From the NCBI GenBank assembly GCA_023248955.1, contig JAHFDP010000020.1, positions 1-54,451 of the forward strand: a stretch of 54,451 bases of DNA, read 5' to 3'. Of the stretch, positions 18,785 through 54,451 are shown one piece after another (the first letter of the stretch is position 1; each line of letters starts with the position of its first letter). A program made the translations under genes and the position numbers. The DNA comes from Deltaproteobacteria bacterium. Its GTDB lineage: Bacteria; Myxococcota; Myxococcia; Myxococcales; JAHFDP01. Below the pieces are notes generated by a model, which was not told where the DNA came from, ran no database searches, and saw only the letters and a list, made by a program, of their open reading frames with translations.

Positions 18785-19108
18785 ATGCCGCGATTCACAC
18801 GTCACGTTTTCATTTGCACCAACGAACGCGATCCCGACAATCCAAAGGGATGTTGCGCGGCAAAAGGTGGTCGCGAGGTGCAAGCGCGTTTGAAGGAGCT
18901 CGTTCACGATCGTGGGCTCAAAGGAAAAGTGCGCGCCAACGCCGCGGGGTGCCTCGATGCGTGCGAGCACGGCGTGGCCGTTGTCGTTTATCCGGAACAG
19001 GTCTGGTACGGCGGCGTGACGCCGGCGGATGTGGCGGAGATCGTGGAGTCGCATCTCGAGGGCGGACGGCCCGTCGAACGGCTGCGCATCAAAAATTATC
19101 CGCGGTAA
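18785..19108 (+). CDS. Thioredoxin-like [2Fe-2S] ferredoxin
   Basis: 'RHVFICTNERD...GCCAAKGG' and 'AAGCLDACEHGVAVVVYPEQVWYGGVTPADV', the four-Cys pattern of NuoE-like 2Fe-2S ferredoxins. Confidence 0.75.
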   Translation: MPRFTRHVFICTNERDPDNPKGCCAAKGGREVQARLKELVHDRGLKGKVRANAAGCLDACEHGVAVVVYPEQVWYGGVTPADVAEIVESHLEGGRPVERLRIKNYPR

Positions 19109-19109
19109 T

Positions 19110-19290
19110 GGTTAGAGCGGTTTTCATTTGCGTCGATCCGCTGCAACGCACGATCGCCGGTCGAAAACGACGGGCTCGTCGCTGCGCTGCTCGACGCACC
19201 AGAAGTGCGCCTGCGCTGCTCGCTCCTCTCGCGCCGTTTTCGCCTCGGCGCTCGCGTGTTTCGCCAGGCTCAACGCAAATGAAAACCGCT
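19110..19290. repeat. 181-bp element bounded by a perfect 22-bp inverted repeat (TTAGAGCGGTTTTCATTTGCGT ... ACGCAAATGAAAACCGCTCTAA)
   Basis: Read directly from the sequence. It fills the convergent gap between the ferredoxin stop (19106-19108) and the hslO stop (19291-19293). Confidence 0.7.
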
Positions 19291-20196
19291 CTAAGCATCG
19301 CCGCCGCGTTCCAGGTCGGCGCGATCGATGGCATCGAGAATCGCGCGAAGTTCCGGCTCTTCCACGGCATACGATTCGCTGCAGAAATCGCAGGTCACAT
19401 CCGCGCGGTGATCGCGAATGATCATGTCGGCCACTTCCGCGGGCCCCAGCGTTGAGATGGCGCGCACCACGCCTTCTCGCGAGCAGCGACAAGCAAAACG
19501 AACCTCTTCGGTGGCGCGCAGTTCGAACGGCACGTCGCCGAGCACGTCGGTGATGAGTTCCTGCGCGCCCTTGGCCACGCGCATCGCGGACGCGAGATAA
19601 CCGTCGCGCAATTTTTGTTGCAAGCGATCGAGTAGTTCCAAATCACCGCCGGGCAATGCTTGCAATAAGATGCCCGCCACTGCGGTGAGCGGCTCGTCTT
19701 CCCAGGCGAGGACCTCGAGTGCCAGCGCGGAATAAGTTTGCTCGCTGGCGCGGAAATAGCGCTCCACACCTTGATCCAGCGCGCCATCGCCGAGATCGAC
19801 CACGCCGCGAAAAATTTTCCCCGGCCCCTGCTCACGCAAAACTGAAATGTAACCAGCACCACCGAGCGCCGGCCGAGTGGAGAAGCGGCCGTCCGGGTTG
19901 TAGAGCGGAAAATTGACGACGCGCGAGCGCACGAGGCCGCGCACATTCCCGTGCGTGTCCGCATCGACGAGCAGTCCGCGCGCGGGGCCGTCGCATTCGA
20001 CTTGAATGTTGACGCGGCCATCGGTTGGTTGAAGGGCGCCGAGCAGAAGTCCAGCGGTGAGGCCCTCGGCAAGCAGCCCCGCCGATGTTGGAGCAAGCTG
20101 GTGGCGGTCGCGCGCTGTGCGGGCAGCGGCCGTGGAAATGACGCCCAGGCACGAGAGACCGCCCGGAGCGACACCTTTCACGAGGTGATCGCGCAT
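19291..20196 (-). CDS. hslO: Redox-regulated chaperone Hsp33
   Basis: Hsp33 core plus C-terminal zinc switch 'CRCSRE...CDFCSESY'. Confidence 0.85.
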   Translation of the reverse strand: MRDHLVKGVAPGGLSCLGVISTAAARTARDRHQLAPTSAGLLAEGLTAGLLLGALQPTDGRVNIQVECDGPARGLLVDADTHGNVRGLVRSRVVNFPLYNPDGRFSTRPALGGAGYISVLREQGPGKIFRGVVDLGDGALDQGVERYFRASEQTYSALALEVLAWEDEPLTAVAGILLQALPGGDLELLDRLQQKLRDGYLASAMRVAKGAQELITDVLGDVPFELRATEEVRFACRCSREGVVRAISTLGPAEVADMIIRDHRADVTCDFCSESYAVEEPELRAILDAIDRADLERGGDA

Positions 20197-30143: not shown

Positions 30144-30785
30144 ATGCAAGGCGATATGGACATCGTCGATCCGCTGATTGAGGAATACCTCACGCGGCTT
30201 TCGCCTTCGCCGGATCCCGTCGAAACGGAGATGAGGCGGTTCGCGGACGAGCGCGGTGGATTTCCAATCATCGGTCCGTTGGTGGGGCAGCTGCTCTCGC
30301 ATTACGCGCAGGCCATCGGCGCGCGGCGCGTCTTCGAGTTGGGGAGCGGTTTTGGCTACTCGGCGTTTTGGCTCGCGCGCGCGGTGGGTCCAGACGGGCA
30401 TGTGGTGCTCACGGAGACCGATCCCGAACACGTGCGCCGTGCGCGCGATTTTTTGGCACAAGCTGCTCTGCTGGATCGTTGCCGCATCGAAAACAGCGAT
30501 GCGCTTTCGCATCTTGAAAAAGCTGGCGAGCAGGATCTCATCTTTGTGGACATCGAGAAGGCCGACTATCCCAAGGCGTTCGCGCTTGCGCTGCCGCGTT
30601 TGCGAAAAGGCGGCCTTCTGATCGCCGACAACGTTCTTTGGGGCGGCGCGGTGGTCCGCGGTGAGCGCGACGCGGCGACCGAAGGGATTCGCGAGTACAT
30701 GCGGTTAATCCACGCGGCGCCCAATTTGCTCTCGGTCGTCATCCCCATTCGTGATGGCGTGGCGGTGTCGCTGCGGATCGGATGA
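30144..30785 (+). CDS. Class-I SAM-dependent O-methyltransferase (family 3, caffeoyl-CoA OMT-like)
   Basis: 'VFELGSGFGYSAFWLARA' SAM motif I and 'IFVDIEKADYP' motif. Confidence 0.8.
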   Translation: MQGDMDIVDPLIEEYLTRLSPSPDPVETEMRRFADERGGFPIIGPLVGQLLSHYAQAIGARRVFELGSGFGYSAFWLARAVGPDGHVVLTETDPEHVRRARDFLAQAALLDRCRIENSDALSHLEKAGEQDLIFVDIEKADYPKAFALALPRLRKGGLLIADNVLWGGAVVRGERDAATEGIREYMRLIHAAPNLLSVVIPIRDGVAVSLRIG

Positions 30786-32107
30786 ACGCGGGCGACGCGG
30801 CGATTGAGATTAAGCGGCTCTCGCGCGAGCGCGGGTTTCTGCTCGTCGGAATTGCTCGTGCTGAAAAATTACCGTCCGCACCGCTCGAACGTTGGCTTGC
30901 ACAAGGGATGCACGCCTCCATGCGTTGGATGGAATCGCGCGTCGATGAGCGACTCGATCCGACGCGCTATTTGCGCGGCGCGCGCTCGGTGGTGGCGGTG
31001 GCGGTGAGTTACGCGCATCCCGATTCGAATCCGGAATCTACTGAGCCGGAAATCCACAGTTGCCGTGGAACCGAGACGGTCAAGCGTGGCCCTTCTGCGA
31101 GGCGCGCAGGAGGGGACTCCCCCGTTACCGGGGGAGATGTCGCGCAGCGACAGAGGGGGGCCGCTTGCGGCGAGCAAGCCCCCGGAAGCGCACTTTTCGG
31201 TGCGCTGAGGAGGCACCGCACGAGCCCGCTATGTGATCGAGCGCTTCCAGCGCCACCAATCGGGCCGGCCGCGCTTCCAACATGCGCGGCAAGCACTGAA
31301 GCAGCCGGGCCGCGCTCGGCCGGCGTAGGTAACGGCAATTGTGGTTTTCCGGCTGAGCTCAACGTCGCGCGTTATGCGCGTGGACGCGACTACCACAACG
31401 TGATTTTGAAACGATTGCGCAAGCTACGGGTCGATTGCGAACGCGCGGTCGGCGGCCACTGGCGCACCAGCGTGGACACAGCGCCGGTCATGGAAAAAGC
31501 TTGGGCCGAGCGCGCGGGACTCGGATGGATCGGAAAGAACGGATGCCTCATCCATCCCGAATGCGGATCGCTGCTGCTGCTCGGAACGCTTATCACCGAC
31601 GTCGAGCTCGCCGCTGACAAGCCGGGCGTCAACCGCTGTGGCAGTTGTCGTCTCTGCATCGATGCTTGTCCCACAGCCGCGATTGTCGAGCCCGGTGTTG
31701 TCGATGCGCGGCGATGCTTGTCGTTCCACACCATCGAATCGCGCGCGGCGATTCCCTTGCCGATCGCGCGCGCCGCCGAAGGGCGTGTCTTCGGTTGTGA
31801 TACATGTCAAGACGTGTGTCCGTGGAACCGATCACCGGAGGGCGATCCCGATGCCGCGCTCGCGCCGCGCCCGGCGCAGTCGGCGTTGAATGTGGAGGAT
31901 GTGCTGGCACTGGATGCGGAGTCATTCACCGCGCGTTATATCGGCACCCCGCTGATGCGTGCAGGTCGCAACGGACTGGTGCGGGCGGCATTGGCCGTGG
32001 CGGCGCGACCGTTGTCGGAGAAAGCGCGCGTGCTCGCGGAGCAGCTCGCCGAGAATGATCCCTCCGAAGTTATTCGCGCACACGCGCGTGAGGCACTCGG
32101 CGCGTGA
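30782..32107 (+). CDS. queG: Epoxyqueuosine reductase QueG carrying an in-frame ~105-aa insertion derived from a MITE
   Basis: QueG blocks 'YAHPD', 'ARYARGRDYHNVILKRL', 'GLGWIGKNGCLIHPECGSLLLLGTLITD', 'CGSCRLCIDACPTAAI', 'CDTCQDVCPWN'. The repeat element lies between 'YAHPDSNPES' and 'ARYARGRDYH', and the ORF stays open through it. Confidence 0.75.
   Translation: MNAGDAAIEIKRLSRERGFLLVGIARAEKLPSAPLERWLAQGMHASMRWMESRVDERLDPTRYLRGARSVVAVAVSYAHPDSNPESTEPEIHSCRGTETVKRGPSARRAGGDSPVTGGDVAQRQRGAACGEQAPGSALFGALRRHRTSPLCDRALPAPPIGPAALPTCAASTEAAGPRSAGVGNGNCGFPAELNVARYARGRDYHNVILKRLRKLRVDCERAVGGHWRTSVDTAPVMEKAWAERAGLGWIGKNGCLIHPECGSLLLLGTLITDVELAADKPGVNRCGSCRLCIDACPTAAIVEPGVVDARRCLSFHTIESRAAIPLPIARAAEGRVFGCDTCQDVCPWNRSPEGDPDAALAPRPAQSALNVEDVLALDAESFTARYIGTPLMRAGRNGLVRAALAVAARPLSEKARVLAEQLAENDPSEVIRAHAREALGA
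31041..31357 (+). mobile_element. MITE-like element copy A (~317 bp, ~25-bp terminal inverted repeats CTGAGCCGGAAATCCACAGTTGCCG / CGGCAATTGTGGTTTTCCGGCTGAG), inside queG
   Basis: Near-identical (~90%) to the reverse complement of 45878-46196. Terminal inverted repeats read directly from the sequence. Boundaries +/-2 nt. Confidence 0.75.
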
Positions 32108-32985
32108 ATCGTCCACCACGTGCGCTCCTCCTCGCGGCGCTCGTTTTTCAAGCGCTGCTCTCCGCGGGAACTTATTTAGCAGCGGCTTCGGCGATGCATT
32201 CGATCGGCCCCATCGCGCTCACGTTTTTGCGCAACGTCGTCTCGGCTGTGATCTACGCAGCGCTGCTCCCCCTCATGCTCGCACGCGGAAAACGTCTCCC
32301 GCCAAAATCGCTCTGGGCGCGCGTGATCTGGTTGTCGGTTCTAGCGGTGCCCATGAACATGGGGTTTTTTCTCTTCGGCATTCATCGTTCGACACCTTCG
32401 CATGCGGCGTTGCTCTATTCGTTGGCGCCACTCTTCGTGATGCTCGCCGCGCGCGGATCGCTTGGAGAGCGGCTCGTTCCGTCGCGGGTGATCGGTGTTC
32501 TCATCGCGCTCGGCGGAACGCTGTGGCTTCTCTCGCAGCGCGGTGTCGATGCGCCCGAAGCACGCTTCGGTGATCTTTTTATTTTGATTGGCGTGATTGG
32601 TTGGTCGCTCTTTTCTGTACACGGAAAACCGCTCGTTCACGAGGTGGGACCACTCGCAGCGACGGCGTGGCCAATCGTTTTCGGAACGGTGCTCTTTTTA
32701 CCGATTGGTCTATTTGGCGCGGAAACAACCGATTGGATGGCACTTTCAAAGGCCGCCTGGTTCGGCGTTTTTTATCTCGGCGTCATCACCAGCGTGGTGT
32801 CCTATCTCTGCTGGTACTGGGCGCTGCGGTATCTCGATGCGGGGCAAGTGGCGATCTTCACCAACCTGCAGCCGGTGGCCACCGCGGCGCTTTCCTGGTT
32901 GGTGCTTGGCGAGCGAATGAGTCCGTCGTTTGCGGCGAGTGCGGCGCTGGTTCTCTTCGGTGTAGCGCTGGTGCAGCGAGCTTAG
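32104..32985 (+). CDS. EamA/DMT-family transporter (10-TM drug/metabolite exporter)
   Basis: Two EamA halves with about ten hydrophobic helices. GTG start overlaps the queG stop. Confidence 0.8.
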   Translation: MNRPPRALLLAALVFQALLSAGTYLAAASAMHSIGPIALTFLRNVVSAVIYAALLPLMLARGKRLPPKSLWARVIWLSVLAVPMNMGFFLFGIHRSTPSHAALLYSLAPLFVMLAARGSLGERLVPSRVIGVLIALGGTLWLLSQRGVDAPEARFGDLFILIGVIGWSLFSVHGKPLVHEVGPLAATAWPIVFGTVLFLPIGLFGAETTDWMALSKAAWFGVFYLGVITSVVSYLCWYWALRYLDAGQVAIFTNLQPVATAALSWLVLGERMSPSFAASAALVLFGVALVQRA

Positions 32986-33002
32986 CCGGAAAACCACAAG
33001 GC

Positions 33003-33485
33003 TTAGCCGCCGTATTTCCAACCAACATCAGCGAGAAGAAGCGGTCGCGGTGACTCGCTGCGAATGCCCGCTTCGATCACTTCGGCGACGACCACGGCAT
33101 GATCGCCGCCGTCGACGAAGTCGCGCACTTCGCACTCCACCCACGCCGCGCAGTCCGCGAGAATGGGCGCGCCGCTGCGACCGGTTTCGTAAGCAAGGTC
33201 CGCGATGCGGCCGTCCGCGCCAGTCGGGGCGCGAAAAAAAGTCTGCCCAACGGATTTTTGATCAGGACCCAGAAACGAAAGTGCGAATCGACGCTCGCGA
33301 CGTGCGTTGAGCTCCGCCGCGGAACCCATGCGCAGTGCCGCGACGATGAGCGGCGGTTTGAAGGAGGATTGGGTCATCCACGTAACGGTGGCGCCCGCGA
33401 CCTCGCCTCCAGCACCGCGCGTTCCGATCACCGCCGCGCACGACGGGAGCAGGAGCAGCGCTTTCTTTTTCGCTTCTTCATTCAT
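33003..33485 (-). CDS. Flavin reductase-like (FMN-binding split-barrel) protein
   Basis: 'GATVTWMTQSSFKPPLIVAAL' pattern typical of the flavin_reduct domain. ATG at 33485 (MNEEAKKK). Confidence 0.65.
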   Translation of the reverse strand: MNEEAKKKALLLLPSCAAVIGTRGAGGEVAGATVTWMTQSSFKPPLIVAALRMGSAAELNARRERRFALSFLGPDQKSVGQTFFRAPTGADGRIADLAYETGRSGAPILADCAAWVECEVRDFVDGGDHAVVVAEVIEAGIRSESPRPLLLADVGWKYGG

Positions 33486-34498
33486 CGCGTTTCTCGGAGG
33501 GCGTCGGGGAGTCCATCGTGCGAACCGCGCACGCGCACGGGTGCTTCGTTCCAACGCAGCGTTGGACGCATCATTTCCATGCGCTGTGGATGGAGCGGAA
33601 AGAAGCAACGGTTCTGCGGATGCTGTTCCCCCATCACGATTAGTCGCACGGGTTGCCGCGTGTTGTTGATCGCGGTGTGGGCGATTCCCGTTCCCGGCGC
33701 GAAGGCCACCGCGTCACCTTCCGCGAGTCGATGCAGCTCGCCATCGATCCATAGATCGGGAGCCCCCTCGAGGACGTAGACGAATTCCTCTTCGAGCTCT
33801 TCGGCATGTGGCAAGCTAGTGCGACGGCCCGGCGGCACGAGCTCGTGATGAACACCGACGCGCGAAAGCCCCAGCGGTCGCGACAGCGGCGTGCCGCAGC
33901 TAAACGCTTCGTTGCTGTTCGGATAGTGACCGATTTCCGATGTGAGATCGCTGACGTGCCGAATGAACGAAGGCCGATCGATCGCGGCCTGCGAAAAAAT
34001 TTCCCCGCGTAGCAGATTCGAGAGCCCATCGTGCGCACCGAGTGGGCGCTGCGGTGCGTCGTTCCACCACTGCTCGGGCTTGAGCTGCTCTTGGCGAATC
34101 GGATTGCACGGATAGGTGATGCGACTGTGCGCGAAATTTTCGCCGATGCCGAGCAGCCGAACCGGTGCATCGGAATTGTTGATCACGCAGTGAGCAATAT
34201 TCGTGAGCGGTAAAAACGCAACCGCGTCTCCGGCGCGTAACCGATGCAGCTCACCGTCGATCCAGACATCGGGCGCGCCTTCGAGAATGTAAGCGAACTC
34301 TTCCTCGAGCTCTTCCGCATGGGGCCAGCTCGATCGCTCACCCGGCATCAAAAGCTGGTGATTGACGCCGATGCGCGGCAATCCGAGCGGTGCCGCCAGC
34401 GGCGTGGTGCGGCCTTGTTCTTCGGCGCTGCCGGGATAGCGAAATTTCTTACTCGGCAAATCGCGAACGTTGCCAATGAACGGCGGCCGCGCGGACAC
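33482..34498 (-). CDS. Bicupin protein (two tandem cupin domains)
   Basis: An internal duplication: 'SWPHAEELEEEFAYILEGAPDVWIDGELHRLRAGDAVAF' aligns with 'SLPHAEELEEEFVYVLEGAPDLWIDGELHRLAEGDAVAF'. Confidence 0.75.
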   Translation of the reverse strand: MSARPPFIGNVRDLPSKKFRYPGSAEEQGRTTPLAAPLGLPRIGVNHQLLMPGERSSWPHAEELEEEFAYILEGAPDVWIDGELHRLRAGDAVAFLPLTNIAHCVINNSDAPVRLLGIGENFAHSRITYPCNPIRQEQLKPEQWWNDAPQRPLGAHDGLSNLLRGEIFSQAAIDRPSFIRHVSDLTSEIGHYPNSNEAFSCGTPLSRPLGLSRVGVHHELVPPGRRTSLPHAEELEEEFVYVLEGAPDLWIDGELHRLAEGDAVAFAPGTGIAHTAINNTRQPVRLIVMGEQHPQNRCFFPLHPQRMEMMRPTLRWNEAPVRVRGSHDGLPDALRETR

Positions 34499-44943: not shown

Positions 44944-45825
44944 ATGACAGCAAAGGAATTGCAGCAGCTCCCGCTCGACGAATTGCGACGGCGTTTTTTG
45001 GGTTCCACTTCCGGGTCTCTTCCGCGTGGTGGGCTTGCTGCGCTCCGAGCGGATGAGCGCCAAGGCGCGCGCGCGCTGGCGGAGCGCATTGCCAGATCGG
45101 GACGAGAGGCGCAGGCGGAGGGGCGGCGCTTGGCGAGACTTCTCGTGTTTGAGCAGTCGCTCTGGTCGCGAGGGATCAACCTCATCGCTGGTGTTGACGA
45201 GGCAGGGATGGCCCCATTGGCGGGACCAGTTGTCGCCGCCGCTGCGATCTTGCCGCCGGGTGTTCAGGGACTTGTCTCAATTAACGATTCGAAATTGCTG
45301 CTTCCCGAGGAGCGGGAAGATCTCGTTCCTCGGATTAAAAGCGTCTCCGTTGCCTGGGCGATTGGAATCGCGTCGGAGGCGGAAATTGATCGACTCAACA
45401 TTTATCACGCGGGGCTTTTGGCCATGCATCGCGCAGTGACTGGACTGTCTGTTTCGCCGCAACACCTGTTGGTGGATGCTCGAAAGGTTCCCGATATCTC
45501 GATGCCGCAGCAAGGAATCGTCAAGGGCGATACCAAGAGCATGTCGATTGCCGCAGCCAGCATCTTGGCAAAGACCTACCGCGATCAGGTGATGCGGAAT
45601 CTTGACGTGAAGCATCCAGGGTACGGCTTTGCTCAACATAAGGGTTATCCGACTCCGGAGCATCTGGCGGCACTCTCGAGACTTGGTGCCTGCGACGTTC
45701 ACCGACGGTCGTTTGGCCCGGTTCGGGAAGCTCCACGTCTCGACGGAATTCAGCCGGACTTTACTTTTGAAAATCAATTTGGGGAGGCGACACCCAACGG
45801 CACCGCACTGCATTCATCGAGCTAA
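44944..45825 (+). CDS. rnhB: Ribonuclease HII with ~75-aa N-terminal extension
   Basis: 'IAGVDEAGMAPLAGPVVAAA' and 'DSKLL' of the RNase HII active site. Confidence 0.8.
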   Translation: MTAKELQQLPLDELRRRFLGSTSGSLPRGGLAALRADERQGARALAERIARSGREAQAEGRRLARLLVFEQSLWSRGINLIAGVDEAGMAPLAGPVVAAAAILPPGVQGLVSINDSKLLLPEEREDLVPRIKSVSVAWAIGIASEAEIDRLNIYHAGLLAMHRAVTGLSVSPQHLLVDARKVPDISMPQQGIVKGDTKSMSIAAASILAKTYRDQVMRNLDVKHPGYGFAQHKGYPTPEHLAALSRLGACDVHRRSFGPVREAPRLDGIQPDFTFENQFGEATPNGTALHSSS

Positions 45826-45877: not shown

Positions 45878-46196
45878 ACTAAGCCGGAAATCCACAATTG
45901 CCGTTACCTACGACGGCCGATCGCGGCCCGTCTACTTCGGTGCTTGCCGCGCATATTGAAAGCGCGGCCGGCCCGATTGGTGGCGCTGGAAGCGCCCGAT
46001 CACATAGCGGGCTCCTCCGGTGCCTCCTCAGCGCACCGAAAAGTGCGCTTTAAGGGGGCTTGCTCGCCGCAAGCGGCCCCCCTCTGTCGCTGCGCGACAT
46101 CTCCCCCGGTACCGGGGGAGTCCCCTCGTCCGCGCCTCGCAGCCGAGCCACGCTCGGCCGTCTCGGTTCCACTGCAACTGTGGATTTCCGGCTAAG
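45878..46196 (-). mobile_element. MITE-like element copy B (intergenic, inverted relative to copy A)
   Basis: The reverse complement matches 31041-31357 over the full length, including both terminal inverted repeats. Lies between rnhB and hemW. Confidence 0.75.
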
Positions 46197-46206
46197 AATC
46201 CTATTC

Positions 46207-47391
46207 TTAGAAGAATTGCAGCGCGATTTCGCTGTGCAGATCGAGACCACGCTCGGTCAGCGCAAGTCGCTGGCCGTTCCACGATGCGAGCCCGCGCTCG
46301 ACGAGCGAGCCGATCGTTTTTTCGTGGCGCGCGCGCGCCGGAAGGCCCAATTCCTCCTCGAGCAGGGCGAGATCGATTCCCGCCACACGGCGTAAACCCG
46401 TCAGAAACCGCTCCCGCAGCAGTGCCTCGGCATCAAGCTCCTCGACGGTCGCCACGGCCAGCTCGGTGCGTCCAGACTCGATGGCCTCGAGGTAGCGCCC
46501 GACCGCTCGCTCGTTGATGGTGCGACGGCCGCGCGGAGTAATCGGATCGCGCCAGAGCCCAACGGCGCCGTTGCCCGCCTGCACGACATCGGCGCCTTCC
46601 CAATAAAGTGCGTTGTGCACAGCCGTGCGGCCCTCCTTCGCGAAATTGGAAATTTCGTAACGGACGATTCCGCCACGCGCGAGCTCCTCTCGTACCGCCG
46701 CGCCCATCTGCGCCTGCGTCTCCTCGTCGGGAAATTTGAGATCGCCGCGCTCCCAGGCCCGCGCCATCGGAACCGGCACCGCCAGCTCGGTTAACGTCAG
46801 CGCGTAACAGGAGATGTGCTCGGGAGAAAGCGCCACTGCCCGCGCCGCATCGGCCCGAGCATCGCCAACCGTTTGCGTGGTGTCACCGTGAATGAGATCG
46901 ATCGAGAGATTGTCAAAACCCGCCGCGCGCGCCTCGGACACAGCACGCGCGGCATCCGCTCCACTGTGCCGGCGCCCAAGCGCGACGAGTGAGGGTGAAG
47001 CAAACGACTGCACGCCAAGCGAGAGTCGGTTGACGCCCACCTCACGGTAAGCGCGAAGGCGAGCCGCATCGCAACTTTCGGGATTTGCCTCCAACGTGAT
47101 TTCCGCCGCGCGCCCGAGGCCAAAATGCGCGCGGCCGGCAGCGATCACGTGGGCAACGCACGCGGGCTCCCACAGACTCGGCGTCCCACCTCCAAAATAG
47201 AGCGAGACCGCTTCGCGCCCAGCGTAGAGCGCGGCCCGCGCGGCGAGTTCCTTGACCACGGCCGCCGCATAACGCTCGTGCGGAATGCGCGCAGCGACCG
47301 CCACGGCGAAATCGCAATACGGGCAAATATGCGAGCAGTAGGGGAAGTGGACGTAGATACCGAATGGACGCACGGCCGCCGAACCTAACAC
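46207..47391 (-). CDS. hemW: Radical-SAM heme chaperone HemW (HemN-like, oxygen-independent coproporphyrinogen oxidase family)
   Basis: 'YVHFPYCSHICPYCDF' is a CxxxCxxC radical-SAM motif, followed by 'GGGTPS'. Confidence 0.8.
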   Translation of the reverse strand: MLGSAAVRPFGIYVHFPYCSHICPYCDFAVAVAARIPHERYAAAVVKELAARAALYAGREAVSLYFGGGTPSLWEPACVAHVIAAGRAHFGLGRAAEITLEANPESCDAARLRAYREVGVNRLSLGVQSFASPSLVALGRRHSGADAARAVSEARAAGFDNLSIDLIHGDTTQTVGDARADAARAVALSPEHISCYALTLTELAVPVPMARAWERGDLKFPDEETQAQMGAAVREELARGGIVRYEISNFAKEGRTAVHNALYWEGADVVQAGNGAVGLWRDPITPRGRRTINERAVGRYLEAIESGRTELAVATVEELDAEALLRERFLTGLRRVAGIDLALLEEELGLPARARHEKTIGSLVERGLASWNGQRLALTERGLDLHSEIALQFF

Positions 47392-47473: not shown

Positions 47474-47566
47474 GGAGAGGTGGCCGAGAGGCCGAAGGCG
47501 CTGGTTTGCTAAACCAGTATAGGGCCAAAAGCTCTATCGTGGGTTCGAATCCCACCCTCTCCGCCA
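47474..47566 (+). tRNA. tRNA-Ser (anticodon GCU), long variable arm
   Basis: GGAGAGG acceptor stem, anticodon loop tTGCTAa, long extra arm, TTCGAATCC T-loop, 3' CCA encoded. Confidence 0.85.
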
Positions 47567-47575
47567 GTACAAAAC

Positions 47576-47652
47576 GGACCTTTAGCTCAGTTGGATAGAG
47601 CGTCGGACTACGAATCCGAAGGCCGCAGGTTCGAATCCTGCAAGGTCCGCCA
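47576..47652 (+). tRNA. tRNA-Arg (anticodon ACG)
   Basis: GGACCTT acceptor, D-arm AGCTCAGTTGGATAGAGC, anticodon loop CTACGAA, GGTTCGAATCC T-arm, CCA. Confidence 0.9.
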
Positions 47653-47699
47653 TTTCAATCCCCGACAACGATTGCCGATTTCCGAGGGCACTGTTCGCC

Positions 47700-47905
47700 A
47701 ACTGGACGGGGATCCCAGTCGTCGGTGACACAGCGGTGCTATGGCGCGCAAGTTTGCCGGTGGCCGGAAGCGTGTTGACGGCTGCGCGAAGGTCCTCCAC
47801 GTCGAGGTGCCCGTAGGTCGACGTGGTGGTGCGCATGTCCGCGTGACGAAGGATTCGCTGGACGTAGTGGGGATTGGTTCCGTTGCGCTGATAGACGCTC
47901 GCCAT
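47700..47905 (-). pseudogene. Tyrosine-integrase C-terminal remnant
   Basis: 'VYQRNGTNPHYVQRILRHADMRTTTSTYGHLDVEDLRAAV' carries the R..H..Y catalytic tail only. A TAG stop and the Xis gene lie immediately upstream. The rest of the ORF is antisense tRNA read-through. Confidence 0.6.
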
Positions 47906-47911
47906 GTCGAC

Positions 47912-48142
47912 CTATCTTACCACTGCGGAAAGTGGCGCCAGGCTTGGCTGCCATTCGCCACGAACATAGGCGCGGATGGCGGCGGGCTCGAAGCGCAGCA
48001 TCGCGCCGACCTTGAAGCAGGGAAGAATTCCGGCCTCGGCGCGCTGGTAGACCCAAGAGCGCGAGCAGTTGAGAAAAGCAGCGACCGCGGCAACGGTCCA
48101 AAGCGTTTCATCGGACTGCGGGACAGACGGAATGACGCTCAT
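47912..48142 (-). CDS. AlpA/excisionase-type helix-turn-helix protein
   Basis: 'WTVAAVAAFLNCSRSWVYQRAEAGILPCFKVGAMLRFEPAAIRAYV' fits the Xis/AlpA pattern (LT..E.A..L.VS..T.Y.....G.LP..K.G...RF...). Confidence 0.6.
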   Translation of the reverse strand: MSVIPSVPQSDETLWTVAAVAAFLNCSRSWVYQRAEAGILPCFKVGAMLRFEPAAIRAYVRGEWQPSLAPLSAVVR

Positions 48143-49341
48143 GCAAGCCTCCGGAGGCCCTTGCGGGCGAGTAGATCGACGAAAAACGTGCGCTCTGTTT
48201 CAGAGGGATAGGCGGGAACTGGGAGTCCCCTTTCGCGAGCGTCCGCGCGAATGTCTTTCAACCTGTCGTAGATGCCGGCGGAGAATTTCAGAGCGCGAAT
48301 GGCCTCATCGTCGGTGAGAAAACCGGTCCGTTCTTGCACGACGACAGGTGTGCTCGCGGGTTTGGCCACCGCATTTCGGAGGCCAAGGAAGCCGGAAAAA
48401 ATCGCTGGTGCTTCCTCGAACGTCATCGCGTGAGCACGGAGATCGAACCGCGACGAAAACTCGCTCGCCTGCCCGTCTTCCTTGCGCCACTCTTCGATGG
48501 TGCGCCGCACCGAATCCCGGCGTGCCGCCGTGGGAACGGTGAAGACAAGTTCGCCCGGAAAGCCATCGGGAAACGCCTGCTGATAGAAGGTCGTTCGCGT
48601 CGACCCGTCCGCGTAGCTTCTGTAGAATTCCGAGTAGCGACGCAATTTCGAAAGCGTCGAGCCAGATTTTTCGTCGGCGTTTGAAAGCGAGTGACCGCCC
48701 ATTTCGCACTCGATGAACCAGCGTCGGCGGACAGGCGCGCTCTCCAAAATGGCATCGGGTTCGATGCGCTTGTTCTGAACGGCGCCAAGTTTGCGGTCGT
48801 ATTGTTTCCACGGAAGACGAGACGACTCTGACGTCGTCCAACGAAAAGATTGGTGCACGGGCGCCGCATCGGTTTTTCCATCGCCGCCGCGCGCCGCAGT
48901 TGCCAGCGCGACGTACAAATCGCTCAGCGCGATCGCATGCTCGAGCAGTTGGTACCCAACATCGTCGGACGGAATTTTCACGTCGCGCCCGAGGACCCGG
49001 GAGGCCGCTTCGTATCCCATCTCCGCCAACCGCCAGACCGCGAGGGGCGTGCCGTAATAGGTGCGATATTTCAGGGCCGCCACGAACGGTCCACGGGCGG
49101 GCGGCACCGACAAAACTTCGAGCCGCCGCCGGACTACGCGATCGGAACGGCATGGAAAGACGAGGCGGGCGATTTGGCTGGAGGTCAGGTAACGCGCCAC
49201 GGCGAGGTGCCCCAACAGGACCAGATCTCGTTTTGTAATTCTCGACGCCTTTTTCGCTCTCTCCTTTGACGCTTCTATCGCTTCACTCGGCGCCGCCCAC
49301 ACTTCTCCGTTGACCCTTGTTCCGTCCTCGTCCTTCGACAT
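48139..49341 (-). CDS. Replication-relaxation (Replic_Relax-like) family protein
   Basis: N-terminal winged-HTH 'LTSSQIARLVFP.RSDRVVRRRLEVL' typical of the family. Long purine-rich leader with AAGGAGGA SD. Confidence 0.5.
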   Translation of the reverse strand: MSKDEDGTRVNGEVWAAPSEAIEASKERAKKASRITKRDLVLLGHLAVARYLTSSQIARLVFPCRSDRVVRRRLEVLSVPPARGPFVAALKYRTYYGTPLAVWRLAEMGYEAASRVLGRDVKIPSDDVGYQLLEHAIALSDLYVALATAARGGDGKTDAAPVHQSFRWTTSESSRLPWKQYDRKLGAVQNKRIEPDAILESAPVRRRWFIECEMGGHSLSNADEKSGSTLSKLRRYSEFYRSYADGSTRTTFYQQAFPDGFPGELVFTVPTAARRDSVRRTIEEWRKEDGQASEFSSRFDLRAHAMTFEEAPAIFSGFLGLRNAVAKPASTPVVVQERTGFLTDDEAIRALKFSAGIYDRLKDIRADARERGLPVPAYPSETERTFFVDLLARKGLRRLA

Positions 49342-49594
49342 AGCCGCTCCTCCTTTCCGTCGGACTCCGCTCCAGCTAGTTCGCCTCGCCCCCTACGATT
49401 CGCCTCCGTCCTCGTTTTCTCGGCTCTTGCTCTTCCGTTCTTCTTGTCTCTTTCAACCCCACTGAAACCACATCATATAATTTTCATTTGTAATCTAATT
49501 CAATTCTACTTCAAGTCAATATTGAATCTTGAGCACTCCCGTCAACCACCTCCAACCAGGTCCCATCTCTTCAATCCAAACCCTGCCTTGGGAT

Positions 49595-49650
49595 CATTTA
49601 CCCCTGACCCCTCTCTCGTCGTTGGGAGAGAGGGGTCAGGGGTAAATGAG
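49595..49650. promoter_or_regulatory. Perfect palindrome with 20-bp arms (TTACCCCTGACCCCTCTCTC-n8-GAGAGAGGGGTCAGGGGTAA) in divergent AT-rich intergenic region
   Basis: Read directly from the sequence. Lies between the divergently oriented Replic_Relax and metalloprotease genes, next to a ~100-bp AT-rich stretch. Confidence 0.5.
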
Positions 49651-49989
49651 ACCGACGAAGTGCGCAGCGGCTACAGTCGACGAAGGACCTGGTTGCCAGC
49701 GGAGAGCGAGGTTTGCGCGCGGGAGATTGATCCGCCGAAGGCAATCGGACCTGTCCGGCCGCCTATTCCAGTGATCCGAAGAATCTAACGGATATGTAAA
49801 CGGATATTTGTAACGCTGACTTCGGATCACCCAGCGACAGCGTTGACGCTGGAAATTTTGGAATGGCGAACAACAAAACTCGGCGAGCTTATTCTTCTCG
49901 GCCTGTTTTCCTCGACGTACGAGATACGACAGTGGGTCCGTTTGAAACCACACCGACCATCCACCCTCGCCAAAAAGCAAGCGGCCGCC

Positions 49990-50150
49990 TGTGTTACCAC
50001 CCGCTTCAGTAAATGGGCCGGTCCTCCCTCGCTTTCCTTCTGCCTTTGGTATTCGCCGCCTCGAGAGCCGGCGAATCGCGAGCCGCGGCCCGCTTCGGTG
50101 AACACCCCGGCCAGCCAAAACGTGGCCGAGCGCCTCCGAGTGATCTACTG
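49990..50150. repeat. ~160-bp direct repeat (copy 1); copy 2 at 54297-54451
   Basis: About 90% identical. Covers the upstream region, start codon and signal-peptide coding region of two paralogous genes. Confidence 0.75.
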
Positions 50151-50993
50151 GTCCGAGATGATTTTGCGTATTCGGGTCGAGCCGAACATCGATTCCGGAC
50201 GAAGCCGATCACCAATTCCGACGCATTTTTGCTCCGAAGCAAATCGAGCGAAGGTAGCGAACTCCAGAAACCAATCCGCGTCATCCCGACGCGAGAGCGG
50301 CGCGAGAAGATAAAGCGGGGCTCCAACGCGCCTCCGCCGCCACCCAGCGGCGTCGCTGCCCGATCTACGGAGTGGGGCAAACCCGATCCCGCGAGGCTAT
50401 CGCTCACGCGGAAGATGGTTGCCGCCCGAGGAACCGCCGACCACAAGGACGCTGAGTTGGTGGCGCACGAGATCGCGCGATTTCCTGAACCGATCCTTCA
50501 ACGATTGGCCGCACAGGGAACGCGGGTAATTGCGGTCCGCGACTCGACCACTGAGTATCATACGCATTTACGCGGAGTTCGCCCTCGCGGATGGCCACCG
50601 GACGCTACCTGGGACTCGGTTCCCGGAACCGGGGACCAGCACGCCCTCGTCATTGCGACGAGGGGCCACGGAACCCCGGTCGGAGCACACACTCCCCATT
50701 TCGGAGATGGCCACGGAAGCTTCTCGATGCCTTTGCATGAGACGCTTCACTCGATCGATCGTGGGAACGGAAGCAAGTTTTCGCATGACGAAGGTTTCGC
50801 GGTGGCGAGGACTGCCGACCTAGCGGCTTTGGATTCGTATTTGCAGCAACCAGGAGCGGCCGGATTGGAGGAGACTTTTGCCGAGACTGGAGCACGCTTC
50901 TTTGCCGGCGATCCGACCCTCGAGCACGCGTGCCCCAACCTCTATCGGTTCTGGAAGGAAGATCCGCTTGGGCTGTGGCGAAACGCGAGATGA
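50013..50993 (+). CDS. Secreted HExxH zinc-metallopeptidase-like protein (effector/toxin-like)
   Basis: Signal peptide MGRSSLAFLLPLVFAASRA. 'HETLHSIDRG' (HExxH) with Glu/Asp downstream ('SKFSHDEGF'). Poly-Pro 'NAPPPPPSG'. Confidence 0.5.
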   Translation: MGRSSLAFLLPLVFAASRAGESRAAARFGEHPGQPKRGRAPPSDLLVRDDFAYSGRAEHRFRTKPITNSDAFLLRSKSSEGSELQKPIRVIPTRERREKIKRGSNAPPPPPSGVAARSTEWGKPDPARLSLTRKMVAARGTADHKDAELVAHEIARFPEPILQRLAAQGTRVIAVRDSTTEYHTHLRGVRPRGWPPDATWDSVPGTGDQHALVIATRGHGTPVGAHTPHFGDGHGSFSMPLHETLHSIDRGNGSKFSHDEGFAVARTADLAALDSYLQQPGAAGLEETFAETGARFFAGDPTLEHACPNLYRFWKEDPLGLWRNAR

Positions 50994-50994
50994 C

Positions 50995-51312
50995 ATGCGG
51001 AGAATAGTTGTCACAGTCGCTTTCGTCGGATCGCTTGGATGCAAGACGCCGATCGCGCACACTCCTCGCCCCCCATCAAAATCCGATTTGCCTGTGAACG
51101 AGAGGACCATGGAGAACATTGGAACCGCGACTATGGAAAGCGACGGGACCATTGTCCTTCGACTGCGCGCAGAGGATGGCAACGGAATGGTCGGCCAAGG
51201 CCGAATCACGTACCCGCCGACGCACAAATCCTATCAGGACGTGCTCCGCCATTTAGGCGGATTGAAAAAGGGAGAGGAAAAGCCCGTTCCTCCATGGCCC
51301 GATTTGCCATGA
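50995..51312 (+). CDS. Small lipoprotein (105 aa) abutting the metallopeptidase; possible cognate inhibitor/immunity protein
   Basis: 'MRRIVVTVAFVGSLGC' is an SPII lipobox. Its ATG lies 1 nt after the upstream TGA. Confidence 0.45.
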   Translation: MRRIVVTVAFVGSLGCKTPIAHTPRPPSKSDLPVNERTMENIGTATMESDGTIVLRLRAEDGNGMVGQGRITYPPTHKSYQDVLRHLGGLKKGEEKPVPPWPDLP

Positions 51313-51502
51313 GCCACCGGATTCGCCAGCCGAGAGGAGGTCGACCGGCACGTGTCCGCGACCTTCTCGGCCGGTTTCGCAGCGGGCACGCTCGTGAAGC
51401 CGGATGGCTCTCAGCTCCCATTTCCGCGTCCGATGGTCAGGACTTCGGCTGGCTCGGGTAGGTGCTGGCCTCATCGATGTTCGGCCTTCCGTCTCGATGC
51501 AA

Positions 51503-51790
51503 CTACGCTGGATCGAAATGCAGCTTCACGTTCACCGAATCTAAAACGGATAAGAACGTGTCCAGTCGCGGATTTCCATTCTTGGACAGCGCCTTGTAGA
51601 GGCTCTCCCGACCGCGCGCCGCGCGCTTGGCGACCTGCGCCACGCCCCTGGCCCGCGCGATGTCCCGCAGCGCCAAGAGCAATTCCGATTTGCCTTCCGC
51701 GAAGGCCGCGGTGAGGTACTCCGCGGCGAATTCCGGATCGCCAAGTCGTGCGTCGAGTCCCTCGGTGTACGCTTTGACTTTCCGTTTCAT
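51503..51790 (-). CDS. HigA/TIGR02684-type addiction-module antidote (HTH) protein
   Basis: 'DPEFAAEYLTAAFAEGKSELLLALRDIARARGVAQVAKRAARGRESLYKALSKNGNPRLDTFLSVLDSVNVKL'. Confidence 0.7.
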   Translation of the reverse strand: MKRKVKAYTEGLDARLGDPEFAAEYLTAAFAEGKSELLLALRDIARARGVAQVAKRAARGRESLYKALSKNGNPRLDTFLSVLDSVNVKLHFDPA

Positions 51791-52149
51791 CATTCGCTCC
51801 CTTGGTATTCGATCCAATATTCTTTCGCCCGCCTGATATCGGCCGCCTGGGATTTCTTGCTACCGCCAGCGAGTAGGACAACCAGCCGCTCTCCATCGTG
51901 CGCGAAATAGATCCGGTACCCAGGTCCGTGGTCTACCCGCAGTTCGTGAACGCCTCCGCCGACCGGCTTGGCATCGCCAAAATTTCCCGAACGAACCCGC
52001 AGAAGCCTTGCGTCGATGCGCGCTCGAGTCTTCGTGTCCTTCAACCCCATCAGCCAAGCGCGAAACGGGACCTTTCCGTTGGTGTCGACGAATTCGACAA
52101 GTTCTCGTTCGGTGATCACGTTCAAGTTGTATCCAAAAAGATACAACAC
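51790..52149 (-). CDS. RelE/ParE-superfamily (TIGR02683 'addiction module killer') toxin
   Basis: 'FRAWLMGLKDTKTRARIDARLLRVRSGNFGDAKPVGGGVHELRVDHGPGYRIYFAHDGERLVVLLAGGSKKSQ..DIRRAKE'. True start probably internal. Confidence 0.7.
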   Translation of the reverse strand: MLYLFGYNLNVITERELVEFVDTNGKVPFRAWLMGLKDTKTRARIDARLLRVRSGNFGDAKPVGGGVHELRVDHGPGYRIYFAHDGERLVVLLAGGSKKSQAADIRRAKEYWIEYQGSE

Positions 52150-52434
52150 GTCAAGCGTTTTGCTGTCTTGCTTTGGGGGCTATACGCGGTGCGTTTTTCA
52201 TCGGCAATGCTGCCGGAGTCGGCGAGAGCAACCCCGAATCGAATTCGACGCCCGCACGTGTTGTCAGCTCGCGTGTTCGCACGGTCCGTACACCGTCGCC
52301 GCCGGCACCCCAAGCCACGACGCCATGGTGAGCCTGTCGCGCGCGCGCCATTGATTGAGATGATCAAGACCAGGGGCGGCGGCTCGCTGGCTGCCGCACT
52401 GGCGATTGCGCCCACACTGCGGCATGATGTCGAC

Positions 52435-52713
52435 ATGACTCGTCCAAGCGTTGTCATCGCCTGGAACCGTCGCGCCAACGCCTACGTCGCTCGAATGACG
52501 ACGCGCGCCGGAGAGCTCGCACGTGGGGCGACGCTGTCGGAGACCGCTCGCAAGCTTGCCGAAGCTATCGACCCGGCGGTCCAGCTTGATGCGGTCTTTC
52601 GCAAGGTCGCGGCGTTCCAGAAGGCGCACAAGGTCAAGCCGCTCTCGATGAAGGAGATCGACGCGGAGATCAAGATTTACCGCGAAGAGCGCGCTCGGCG
52701 CCGCCGCGCGTGA
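52435..52713 (+). CDS. HicB-like (UPF0150 fold) antitoxin partner of the PIN toxin
   Basis: 'PSVVIAWNRRANAYVARMTTRAGELARGATLSETARKLAEAI'. Stop overlaps the vapC start. Alternative start at 52360. Confidence 0.45.
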   Translation: MTRPSVVIAWNRRANAYVARMTTRAGELARGATLSETARKLAEAIDPAVQLDAVFRKVAAFQKAHKVKPLSMKEIDAEIKIYREERARRRRA

Positions 52714-53129
52714 GGCTCGTTTTCGACACCAACGTTCTCGTGTCGGCGCTCATCACACCGAAGGGGACAGCGCGCCGATCAATCGACGCCGCTATCCACT
52801 CAACGGCCATCGTTCTCTACGATGAGCGAATTCTCCTCGAGTACGCGGAAGTCACGACCCGTGCGAAGTTTCGCGGAAAGTATCCGCCGAATGCACCGCG
52901 CGAACTCCTGCTCGCGTTGCTGGCACGAAGCGAGTCAGTTGTCGGATCGCCAAGCGACCTGGTATTGCCGGATCCAACGGACGCGCCGTTCCTGGAAGTT
53001 GCAATTGCTGGCCAGGCCGACGCAATCGTCACGGGAAACGCCAAGCATTATCCGGCCAGCTCGGGGGTTCCCATTTTCTCGCCGCAGGACCTCGTGCGGC
53101 GTCTGCACCAACAGCGTCCAGATCGCTGA
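52710..53129 (+). CDS. vapC: PIN-domain toxin (VapC-like)
   Basis: 'MRLVFDTNVLVSALI', acidic residues in 'YDERIL', and 'AIVTGNAKHY'. Confidence 0.8.
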   Translation: MRLVFDTNVLVSALITPKGTARRSIDAAIHSTAIVLYDERILLEYAEVTTRAKFRGKYPPNAPRELLLALLARSESVVGSPSDLVLPDPTDAPFLEVAIAGQADAIVTGNAKHYPASSGVPIFSPQDLVRRLHQQRPDR

Positions 53130-53144
53130 GTGACGGTTATTGGC

Positions 53145-53313
53145 TCACCTGCGCCGAACAAATTCCGACAGCGCACCCGGCTCAACCCGAATCGAATTCG
53201 ACACCCGCACGTGCTTGAGCTCACCTCGCTCGCACAGTCCGTACACCATCGCCGTCGACACCCCAATCCACGCCGCCACCTCGCGTACATTTAATAGACG
53301 CGAACCAAAATTC
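53145..53313 (-). CDS. Second AlpA-type HTH gene (short)
   Basis: Hand translation of the minus strand: 'REVAAWIGVSTAMVYGLCERGELKHVRVSNSIRVEPGALSEFVRRR*'. A degraded copy of the same ~100-bp segment lies at 52225-52325. Start uncertain. Confidence 0.4.
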
Positions 53314-53443
53314 GGTGACACAGCGGTGCTATGAAATATGAAAACCGGCGCTAACGGTCCACTGAATGTAATTTAGCGGAATCGGTTTCCGCAATACTTC
53401 CCATAGCTTGCGAAGCCTCGTCACTCGCTGCGAATCCATTTCC

Positions 53444-53515
53444 CAGACCTACGAATCCGAAGGCCGCAGGTTCGAATCCTGCAAGGTCCGCCATTTTAAT
53501 CCCCGACAACGATTG
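53444..53515 (+). repeat. Partial tRNA-Arg 3' half plus flank (attR-like direct repeat)
   Basis: 'CTACGAATCCGAAGGCCGCAGGTTCGAATCCTGCAAGGTCCGCCA' plus 'TTTtAATCCCCGACAACGATTGCCGA' duplicates 47608-47679. Confidence 0.75.
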
Positions 53516-54245
53516 CCGAGCGTAATTTCTCTACCATCCACGGCCAGCCCACGCCTTCGACAAGACGGTATGGAAAAGCATGTCCGATTCCGAGAATCTC
53601 TCGAAGTTCAACTTCGCTTTCCGGTTGACCAGCAACAAAGGCGCGAACGTGTTCGATGGGAAAGAGTCGATCGTCGATCCCGTGAACAAAAAGCGTTGGC
53701 ACGTGGGCTAGCCGAACGTTGCACCGCCATGGTGCGGCAGCGAATGCAACGATGCCAAGAATGCGCTTAGCAAGGGTGTCGCCCAATTCCCAGGCCGTGT
53801 TGGCTCCCGCCGAGAGACCGACGACAACGACCGGTTGTCCGACAAGGCGACCCATGGCTTGCTCTACGACCTCGTTTTTTGTCGCCTCGGTCCAAGTGGG
53901 GCTGACGAGGTGAATCGCGTGTGCTTGGAGAAGCTCATAGAAGACCGCGGCAAACCGGCGGCCAGTGTCCTGAGCGCCATGCAAAGCAAGCACCCCGACC
54001 TGCGCAACGCCCACCTTTGGCCGCAATCCCAGACCGTCCGCGCCGATCGGTTCAACCTCGTAGTGCGGCTCGAGCGCCGCGAGCAGCCGCAACGAAAGAC
54101 GTTCGTGCAAGTCCAAGAGGAGGTTGGGCGATGACTGTACTGGTTCCTGCAAGCCGAGATATTTGCAAAGGTCGCTGGCGTTCGGCGGCAGTGGTCCTCC
54201 GAGACCAAAGCGCTCCAGAATTGTCGCGGCATCGAGGATGTCCAT
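53496..54245 (-). CDS. Alpha/beta-hydrolase fold protein (esterase/lipase-like)
   Basis: Nucleophile elbow 'VVVGLSAGAN' and 'LFVHGIDDRLFP'. Start set at the MDILDA ATG. Confidence 0.65.
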   Translation of the reverse strand: MDILDAATILERFGLGGPLPPNASDLCKYLGLQEPVQSSPNLLLDLHERLSLRLLAALEPHYEVEPIGADGLGLRPKVGVAQVGVLALHGAQDTGRRFAAVFYELLQAHAIHLVSPTWTEATKNEVVEQAMGRLVGQPVVVVGLSAGANTAWELGDTLAKRILGIVAFAAAPWRCNVRLAHVPTLFVHGIDDRLFPIEHVRAFVAGQPESEVELREILGIGHAFPYRLVEGVGWPWMVEKLRSAIVVGD

Positions 54246-54330
54246 AGTCGGCGGGGCAGCGCGAAGGAGTATAGCCCGCGGATGCATCGATCGCGCCTGT
54301 GTTACCACCCCGCTTCAGTAAATGGGCCGG

Positions 54331-54451
54331 TCCTCCGTCGCATTCCTTCTGCCTTTGGTATTCGCCGCCTCGAGAGCCGGCGAATCGCGAGCCGCGGCCC
54401 GCTTCGGTGACCCCCCCGGCCAGCCAAAACGTAGACGAGCGCCTCCGAGCC
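54331..54451 (+). CDS. Paralog of the HExxH metallopeptidase-like gene, 3'-truncated by window end
   Basis: 'MGRSSVAFLLPLVFAASRAGESRAAARFGDPPGQPK...' is the same signal peptide as the 50013 gene, and lies within the direct repeat. Confidence 0.5.

Follow-up and report, generated by a model that had tools for sequence, protein, structure and literature searches.

A MITE with CTNAG target-site duplications, probably inserted in frame at a variable loop of queG in a Myxococcota-like bacterium

The queG gene, which encodes epoxyqueuosine reductase, probably hosts a non-autonomous MITE that was inserted in frame at a variable loop of the enzyme, leaving a gene with an enlarged loop that is otherwise intact. 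Within the window (i.e., the whole 54,451-nucleotide stretch of DNA subjected to our analysis), we found two full copies of the element and one remnant, with one of the full copies (copy A) lying inside queG. An earlier inspection of this DNA without database searches (hereafter, the sequence-only reading) had proposed that a MITE sits in queG without breaking the reading frame, and our data bear this out, in that the element has inverted repeats, carries duplications of its own, shows no coding potential, and corresponds to a 104-residue indel in the protein.

Copy A (31041..31357, + strand) spans 317 bp, including both of its CTGAG repeats, and copy B (45879..46196, - strand) spans 318 bp with CTAAG on each side. 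The two are 92% identical, differing by 24 substitutions and, close to the center, by one indel of 1 nt, and they lie at unrelated loci 14.5 kb apart in opposite orientations, much as the sequence-only reading had described them (two inverted copies of ~317 bp). It had placed copy B at 45878-46196, of which the end stands and the start is shifted to 45879. Similarly, the terminal inverted repeats that it reported are present in both copies, with a length of ~20 bp in place of the proposed ~25 bp. In copy A, the left repeat occupies 31046..31065 (+ strand, CCGGAAATCCACAGTTGCCG) and the right repeat 31333..31352 (- strand, as reverse complement CCGGAAAACCACAATTGCCG); these 20-nt ends are complementary at 18 of 20 positions, and weaker pairing extends out to ~57 nt. 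The inverted-repeat end of the element, in the form that an IS5-family (IS1031-like) parent would carry, is CCGGAAAWCCACARTTGCCG.

Target-site duplications, which the sequence-only reading had put forward as something to look for, were found at each of the three traces in the window. Copy A is bounded by CTGAG at 31041..31045 and again at 31353..31357, which may be read either as CTNAG (5 bp) or, within C|TNA|G, as TGA (3 bp). The direct repeats differ by copy (CTGAG for A, CTAAG for B, and CTTAG for the remnant). At all three sites, the central base is repeated directly and not as its complement, and therefore CTNAG belongs to the target-site duplication and not to the inverted repeat. Collectively, the three CTNAG duplications define the target as C|TNA|G, and duplication lengths of 3 bp (TNA) and 5 bp (CTNAG) are both compatible with all three sites. 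CTNAG is scarce in the window as a whole, with 60 occurrences against 113.6 +/- 10 expected from dinucleotide-preserving shuffles. Avoidance of stop codons in coding frames could explain this deficit, as could selection against target sites or restriction avoidance, CTNAG also being the DdeI-type restriction site.

The end of the element, taken as CTNAG plus the start of the inverted repeat (CTNAGCCGGAAAWCCACA), has five perfect occurrences in the window as compared with none in 100 shuffles. Four of the five are the ends of copies A and B, and the fifth marks the remnant at 32981..33006 (+ strand, 26 bp), which reads CTTAG, then CCGGAAAACCACAAGG, then CTTAG. Of the 16 nt left between the duplicated CTTAG motifs, 14 come from the left repeat and 2 from the right end, and the remnant is, judged by this make-up, an internally deleted stub of a third copy. 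The occurrence of three traces within 54 kb suggests a multi-copy family, and one of the three, in this sample of three, is inside a gene.

The remnant sits exactly where the stops of two convergent genes meet. The eamA gene (32104-32985, + strand) has its TAG stop inside the first CTTAG, and the flavin reductase gene (33003-33608, - strand) has its TAA stop inside the second, such that the duplication supplies one stop to each. Since the two stops lie in separate CTTAG copies, the empty site would have had the genes overlapping at one CTTAG. Copy B is intergenic, being located between the gene for RNase HII (44944-45825, + strand) and a convergent HemN/HemW-like radical SAM gene (46207-47391, - strand). 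We also considered a composite transposon delimited by the two inverted copies and rejected it, given that the duplications match at the two ends of either copy; for the same reason, recombination has not flipped the 14.5-kb interval after insertion.

The queG gene (30782..32107, + strand) comprises 441 codons including the insert, with residues 87-190 being element-derived, and it overlaps both of its neighbors by 4 bp (ATGA at the start and GTGA at the stop). The frame is indeed open for all 441 codons, as the sequence-only reading had stated, and the insertion point does fall between the conserved blocks YAHPD and ARYARGRDYH. The element and one extra target copy lengthen queG by exactly 312 bp (104 codons), in keeping with the proposed gain of ~100 residues rich in Ala, Gly, Pro, and Arg. 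The predicted insert-derived segment of 104 residues has this composition, brings five extra cysteines, and stops 11 residues short of the catalytic Asp-Tyr-His motif. Excision of the insert in silico leaves YAHPDSNPESTELNVARYARG, a stretch of 15 residues between the conserved Tyr and Arg.

With the best 120 proteins listed by a homology search (the query, P0001, and 119 others; 309-494 residues), we assessed the segment across QueG orthologs. The sequence-only reading had anticipated a clean indel of ~105 residues at this loop and had pointed to the same ~100-residue segment in orthologs as the observation that would speak against an insertion. The alignment revealed a clean indel of 104 residues, and the segment is absent from all 119 orthologs among the matches listed. 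The nearest of these, P0002, is 70% identical to the query and has a loop of 14 residues, as compared with 15 after excision; its locus on contig L001 is syntenic, with genes for a TPR protein and a methyltransferase, then queG and eamA, as here. Through the orthologs and the syntenic L001, the empty-site comparison is one with other species. Among the 119 listed orthologs, the loop measures 14-47 residues with a mode of 16-17, and no other loop of QueG is as variable in length as this one. Low-complexity extensions of 8-30 residues occur at this same loop in 16 of the 119 listed orthologs, including P0006, P0021, P0062, P0085, P0086, P0107, and P0117. The nearest named QueG homologs among the matches listed come from Myxococcales metagenome-assembled genomes.

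The insert differs from the remainder of queG in its composition. Its GC content at codon positions 1/2/3 is 0.72/0.71/0.61, as compared with 0.68-0.70/0.52-0.54/0.66-0.70 in the remaining gene; the insert does not have the appearance of coding sequence shaped by evolution. Stop codons interrupt four of six frames in copy A and five of six in copy B. The queG frame is one of the two open frames of copy A; the sixth frame of copy B is open only up to a stop in the flanking repeat, and this copy offers no frame usable for read-through. In shuffles of the element's composition over 105 codons, the chance that a given frame is stop-free was ~0.10, and an open frame in queG is thus not rare for such a composition. 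An element 1 nt longer, like the 318-bp copy B, would have put queG out of frame; going by the two copies, either 317 or 318 bp may be the ancestral length, and in the latter case copy A could carry a frame-restoring deletion.

Outside the insert, the enzyme appears complete. QueG displays the Pfam domains PF08331 and PF13484, and phmmer matched it to the structures 5D6S (E = 1e-40) and 5D08 (E = 5e-39). We built an AlphaFold2 model with the 120-sequence alignment, and Foldseek aligned it to 5D0B, the QueG of B. subtilis, with a TM-score of 0.81. In this model, the block-mean pLDDT of the core is mostly 88-98, and nearly all of residues 86-189 have a pLDDT of <50 and no secondary structure. 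Residues D203, Y204, H205, and D232 are retained, as are the eight cluster cysteines (C286, C289, C292, C296, C312, C339, C342, and C346), all at invariant columns of the ortholog alignment. By correspondence with characterized enzymes, D203-Y204-H205 are D100-Y101-H102 of S. thermophilus QueG, H205 is His106 of B. subtilis QueG, and D232 is equivalent to Asp134 (PMC4646009, PMC5175355). Since the loop length already varies three-fold among orthologs, we infer that the enlarged loop is tolerated and that the enzyme still works, perhaps at a lower level.

A different outcome of the same insertion is possible, if rather doubtful: it may have inactivated queG, which would then be a strongly hypomorphic allele or a pseudogene of recent origin. 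Its frame would be open by chance, or would be retained solely since a stop in queG would uncouple the translationally coupled eamA downstream or act on it by polarity. The chance that a frame is open lies at roughly 10-33%, and the 4-bp overlaps of queG with its neighbors fit with such coupling. The insert comes within 11 residues of the Asp-Tyr-His motif, makes the loop 2.5 times longer than that of any ortholog among the matches listed, and places five extra cysteines beside an iron-sulfur enzyme core. In addition, the predicted fold indicates that the inverted repeats would add a duplex of ~25 bp to the queG mRNA, and RNase III cleaves such duplexes in Correia-containing transcripts. Moreover, E. 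coli can do without queuosine when grown under normal conditions (PMC5175355). The remainder of the gene argues against decay, however, as the 337 non-insert codons contain no frameshift, no stop, and no lost invariant residue, and the core was modeled with high confidence. A comparison of private changes at columns conserved in 118 outgroups gave 21 in this lineage and 21 in the lineage of the insert-free P0002; there is thus no excess here, though this relative-rate comparison spans a long divergence and is blind to recent loss of constraint. The insertion also falls in the loop that, of all loops in the protein, varies most in length.

For the in-frame insertion that would leave a working enzyme, the following steps are proposed. 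A MITE of ~317 bp would have moved by cut-and-paste and entered a C|TGA|G site within those codons of queG that specify the variable surface loop, having been mobilized in trans, presumably by a transposase of the IS5/PIF-Harbinger type, with the target site being the one character that points to this family. The element and the duplicated target add exactly 312 bp, and the frame in which they are read happens to be stop-free. The predicted product of the gene is then a QueG that carries a segment of 104 residues and is otherwise intact. The open frame would also keep translation coupled to the downstream eamA, and the frame could have been kept open for the translation of eamA rather than for QueG itself.

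A more far-reaching version of this proposal strikes us as unlikely. Under it, the element would represent a coding-compatible MITE family of a free-living, GC-rich, Myxococcota-like lineage that is repeatedly inserted in the surface loops of housekeeping enzymes, in the manner of Rickettsia palindromic elements, and the 1-nt difference of copy A would be a frame-restoring deletion that was selected once the element had inserted, as a rescue of QueG. If true, a transposon would have been caught in the act of becoming a disordered protein segment of ~100 residues beside an active site.

Two further explanations can be regarded as very improbable. In the first, the segment would be native to this lineage's QueG with copy B secondary, or else the similarity would stem from a local inverted duplication or an assembly artifact, as might be supposed for a sequence seen only in this contig, in two inverted copies 14.5 kb apart. 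A mere local duplication, which the sequence-only reading had itself named as an alternative, is contradicted by the different target duplications of the two copies (CTGAG and CTAAG), each with inverted-repeat ends, and by the third trace at another site, and misassembly would not make precise target-site duplications. A native segment is likewise at odds with the intergenic position of copy B and its stops in five of six frames, with the non-coding composition of the insert by codon position, and with the lack of the segment in all 119 listed orthologs.

In the second, which we judge to be just as improbable, the element would be removed or skipped at the level of RNA or translation (as an intron or by bypass), or would be a structured RNA gene, and QueG would be made without the loop. 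The sequence-only reading had called the element strongly palindromic, and its fold agrees with this description. The whole of copy A folds at -188 kcal/mol (z = -8.4 versus shuffles), and the opposite-strand transcript folds at -174 kcal/mol (z = -5.1); a perfect internal hairpin at 31116..31136 (ACTCCCCCGTTACCGGGGGAG) is one among several local hairpins of the core. Such a very stable fold, with paired ends that bring the flanks together, speaks for removal of this kind. Nevertheless, Rfam yielded no intron and no other RNA family for the element, either at gathering thresholds or at E up to 10, and no promoter-like or terminator-like sites were detected inside the element. The cases of translational bypass known so far cover no more than tens of nucleotides, and the duplicated targets and inverted repeats speak for transposition at the level of DNA.

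Searches for further copies or for a parent element were carried out in several sequence collections. The exact 20-mer AGCCGGAAAWCCACARTTGC gave five matches in GTDB representative genomes and five in JGI metagenomes, none of which is a further copy of the element. All of these matches are single, extend over the length of the inverted repeat only, and do not have the CTNAG prefix; being isolated and lacking CTNAG, they look like chance. A 19-mer scan of IMG/VR viral contigs returned one chance match only, and blastn of the element against plasmids returned nothing. An exhaustive phmmer search with the insert peptide against 1.84 billion representatives recovered only P0001 and two unrelated repeat proteins. 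A word-indexed search with the 105-residue insert peptide found no other carrier, which is a weak negative given that P0001 itself was missed despite being exact; the same method applied to the opposite-strand ORF also found no other carrier and is a weak negative too. In Pfam, none of the six frames of the element had a match at E up to 1, and thus no transposase fragment was seen. No transposase is encoded in the 54-kb window, and no autonomous insertion sequence with matching ends was found in the genome, metagenome, viral, or plasmid scans.

Several other features of the window were recorded during this analysis. Two tRNA genes, tRNA-Ser(GCT) and tRNA-Arg(ACG), are located at 47474-47652, and the stretch 53449-53519 repeats the last 45 nt of tRNA-Arg together with 26 nt downstream of it (99% identity). 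The interval of ~5.8 kb between the tRNA-Arg repeats hosts Replic_Relax, a protein with an anthrax-lethal-factor-like domain, and a PIN protein, and the region 47474-53519 looks like a putative integrated element with att repeats. A direct repeat of 141 nt (96% identity) occurs at 50000-50140, inside the putative island, and at 54309-54449, at the contig end. At positions 1-615, a gene that is cut off by the left contig end has its 3' part, which encodes RCC1-like repeats (GG.KCWG.N..GQLGD); these explain the 129-153-bp tandem DNA repeats there. In addition, two inverted repeats that share no sequence with the MITE were noted, one at 19102-19139 / 19267-19304 (87% complementary arms of 38 nt, separated by 127 nt) and one at 49583-49660 (86% complementary arms of 35 nt, separated by 8 nt).

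The target site offers the closest link to known transposons. A C|TNA|G target whose duplication can likewise be read as 3 or 5 bp has been described for the eukaryotic Nuwa-II of the PIF/Harbinger-IS5 superfamily (PMC4482050), and among bacterial IS5-family elements, the IS1031 group has been reported to have three-nucleotide targets as a rule (PMC2516522). The likeness to Nuwa-II and the IS1031 group consists in the target and its duplication, and the assignment is one by target site only. The apparent affinity with IS5/PIF-Harbinger would thus serve as a lead to the parent transposase and not as proof.

Small palindromic repeats that are in frame within bacterial genes are well documented (PMC10969869, PMC3184786, PMC5896051), the cases including Rickettsia palindromic elements, QMITE1 and QMITE2 of Coxiella, intragenic ERIC, pneumococcal BOX, and the MITEs of Anabaena (PMC5896051, PMC10969869, PMC3184786). 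Prokaryotic MITEs in ORFs likewise measure 150-400 bp, have terminal inverted repeats and short direct repeats, encode no transposase of their own, and are at times inserted in frame. For QMITE1, a fold of -193 kcal/mol has been reported, which is comparable with the -188 kcal/mol of our element, but its duplication is 2-4 bp of variable sequence and that of QMITE2 is 7-11 bp, as opposed to C|TNA|G. The known ORF-inserted MITEs showed no sequence similarity to the element in anything searched, and they are found at 3' ends or in hypothetical ORFs, whereas copy A lies mid-gene in a well-characterized enzyme. The host of the element also appears to be GC-rich and Myxococcota-like, unlike the hosts of the MITEs compared.

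The sequence-only reading had likened the element to Rickettsia palindromic elements, and this comparison holds for behavior and fails for family membership. As far as PMC10969869 relates (citing Ogata 2000 and 2002), the Rickettsia elements are in frame within housekeeping genes and are read through as an extra peptide, which is predicted to be compatible with the fold and function of the host protein. They are, however, ~105-150 bp long and specific to Rickettsia, whereas the present element is 317 bp and its host appears to be Myxococcota-like. They also display a coding-compatible bias over dozens of copies, whereas in the small sample here, one of three traces is within a gene. We found no match to them in Rfam or otherwise, and the GC content of 61% in the window and the Myxococcales origin of the nearest named QueG homologs also set the element apart.

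The further likeness to Correia or REP-type elements that had been proposed did not hold up as an affiliation. Correia elements and REP/BIME sequences share with the element the trait of being small palindromic repeats with long-hairpin transcripts. Correia elements, however, are ~100-155 bp long with a TA duplication, and to our knowledge, REPs come without a target duplication, as opposed to 317 bp and a CTNAG/TNA duplication here. REPs are 20-40 bp long and have GTAG or CGTC heads (PMC3733652). From its sequence, the element has the structure that defines a MITE and is best called a putative new MITE family with a C|TNA|G target of the Harbinger/IS5 type, which was seen once within a conserved enzyme and shows an already known behavior.

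The significance of this finding is modest, as it concerns a single instance of a known phenomenon and a protein that is predicted only. The locus provides three clean bacterial examples of the C|TNA|G target, one of which re-creates the stops of two convergent genes. In-frame MITE insertions are one documented route to new protein loops, and most of the cases described so far come from the reduced genomes of intracellular bacteria or from hypothetical genes. Here, the host enzyme is structurally solved and mechanistically understood and the site is 11 residues from Asp-Tyr-His, and therefore the tolerance of QueG to 104 additional residues is directly testable.
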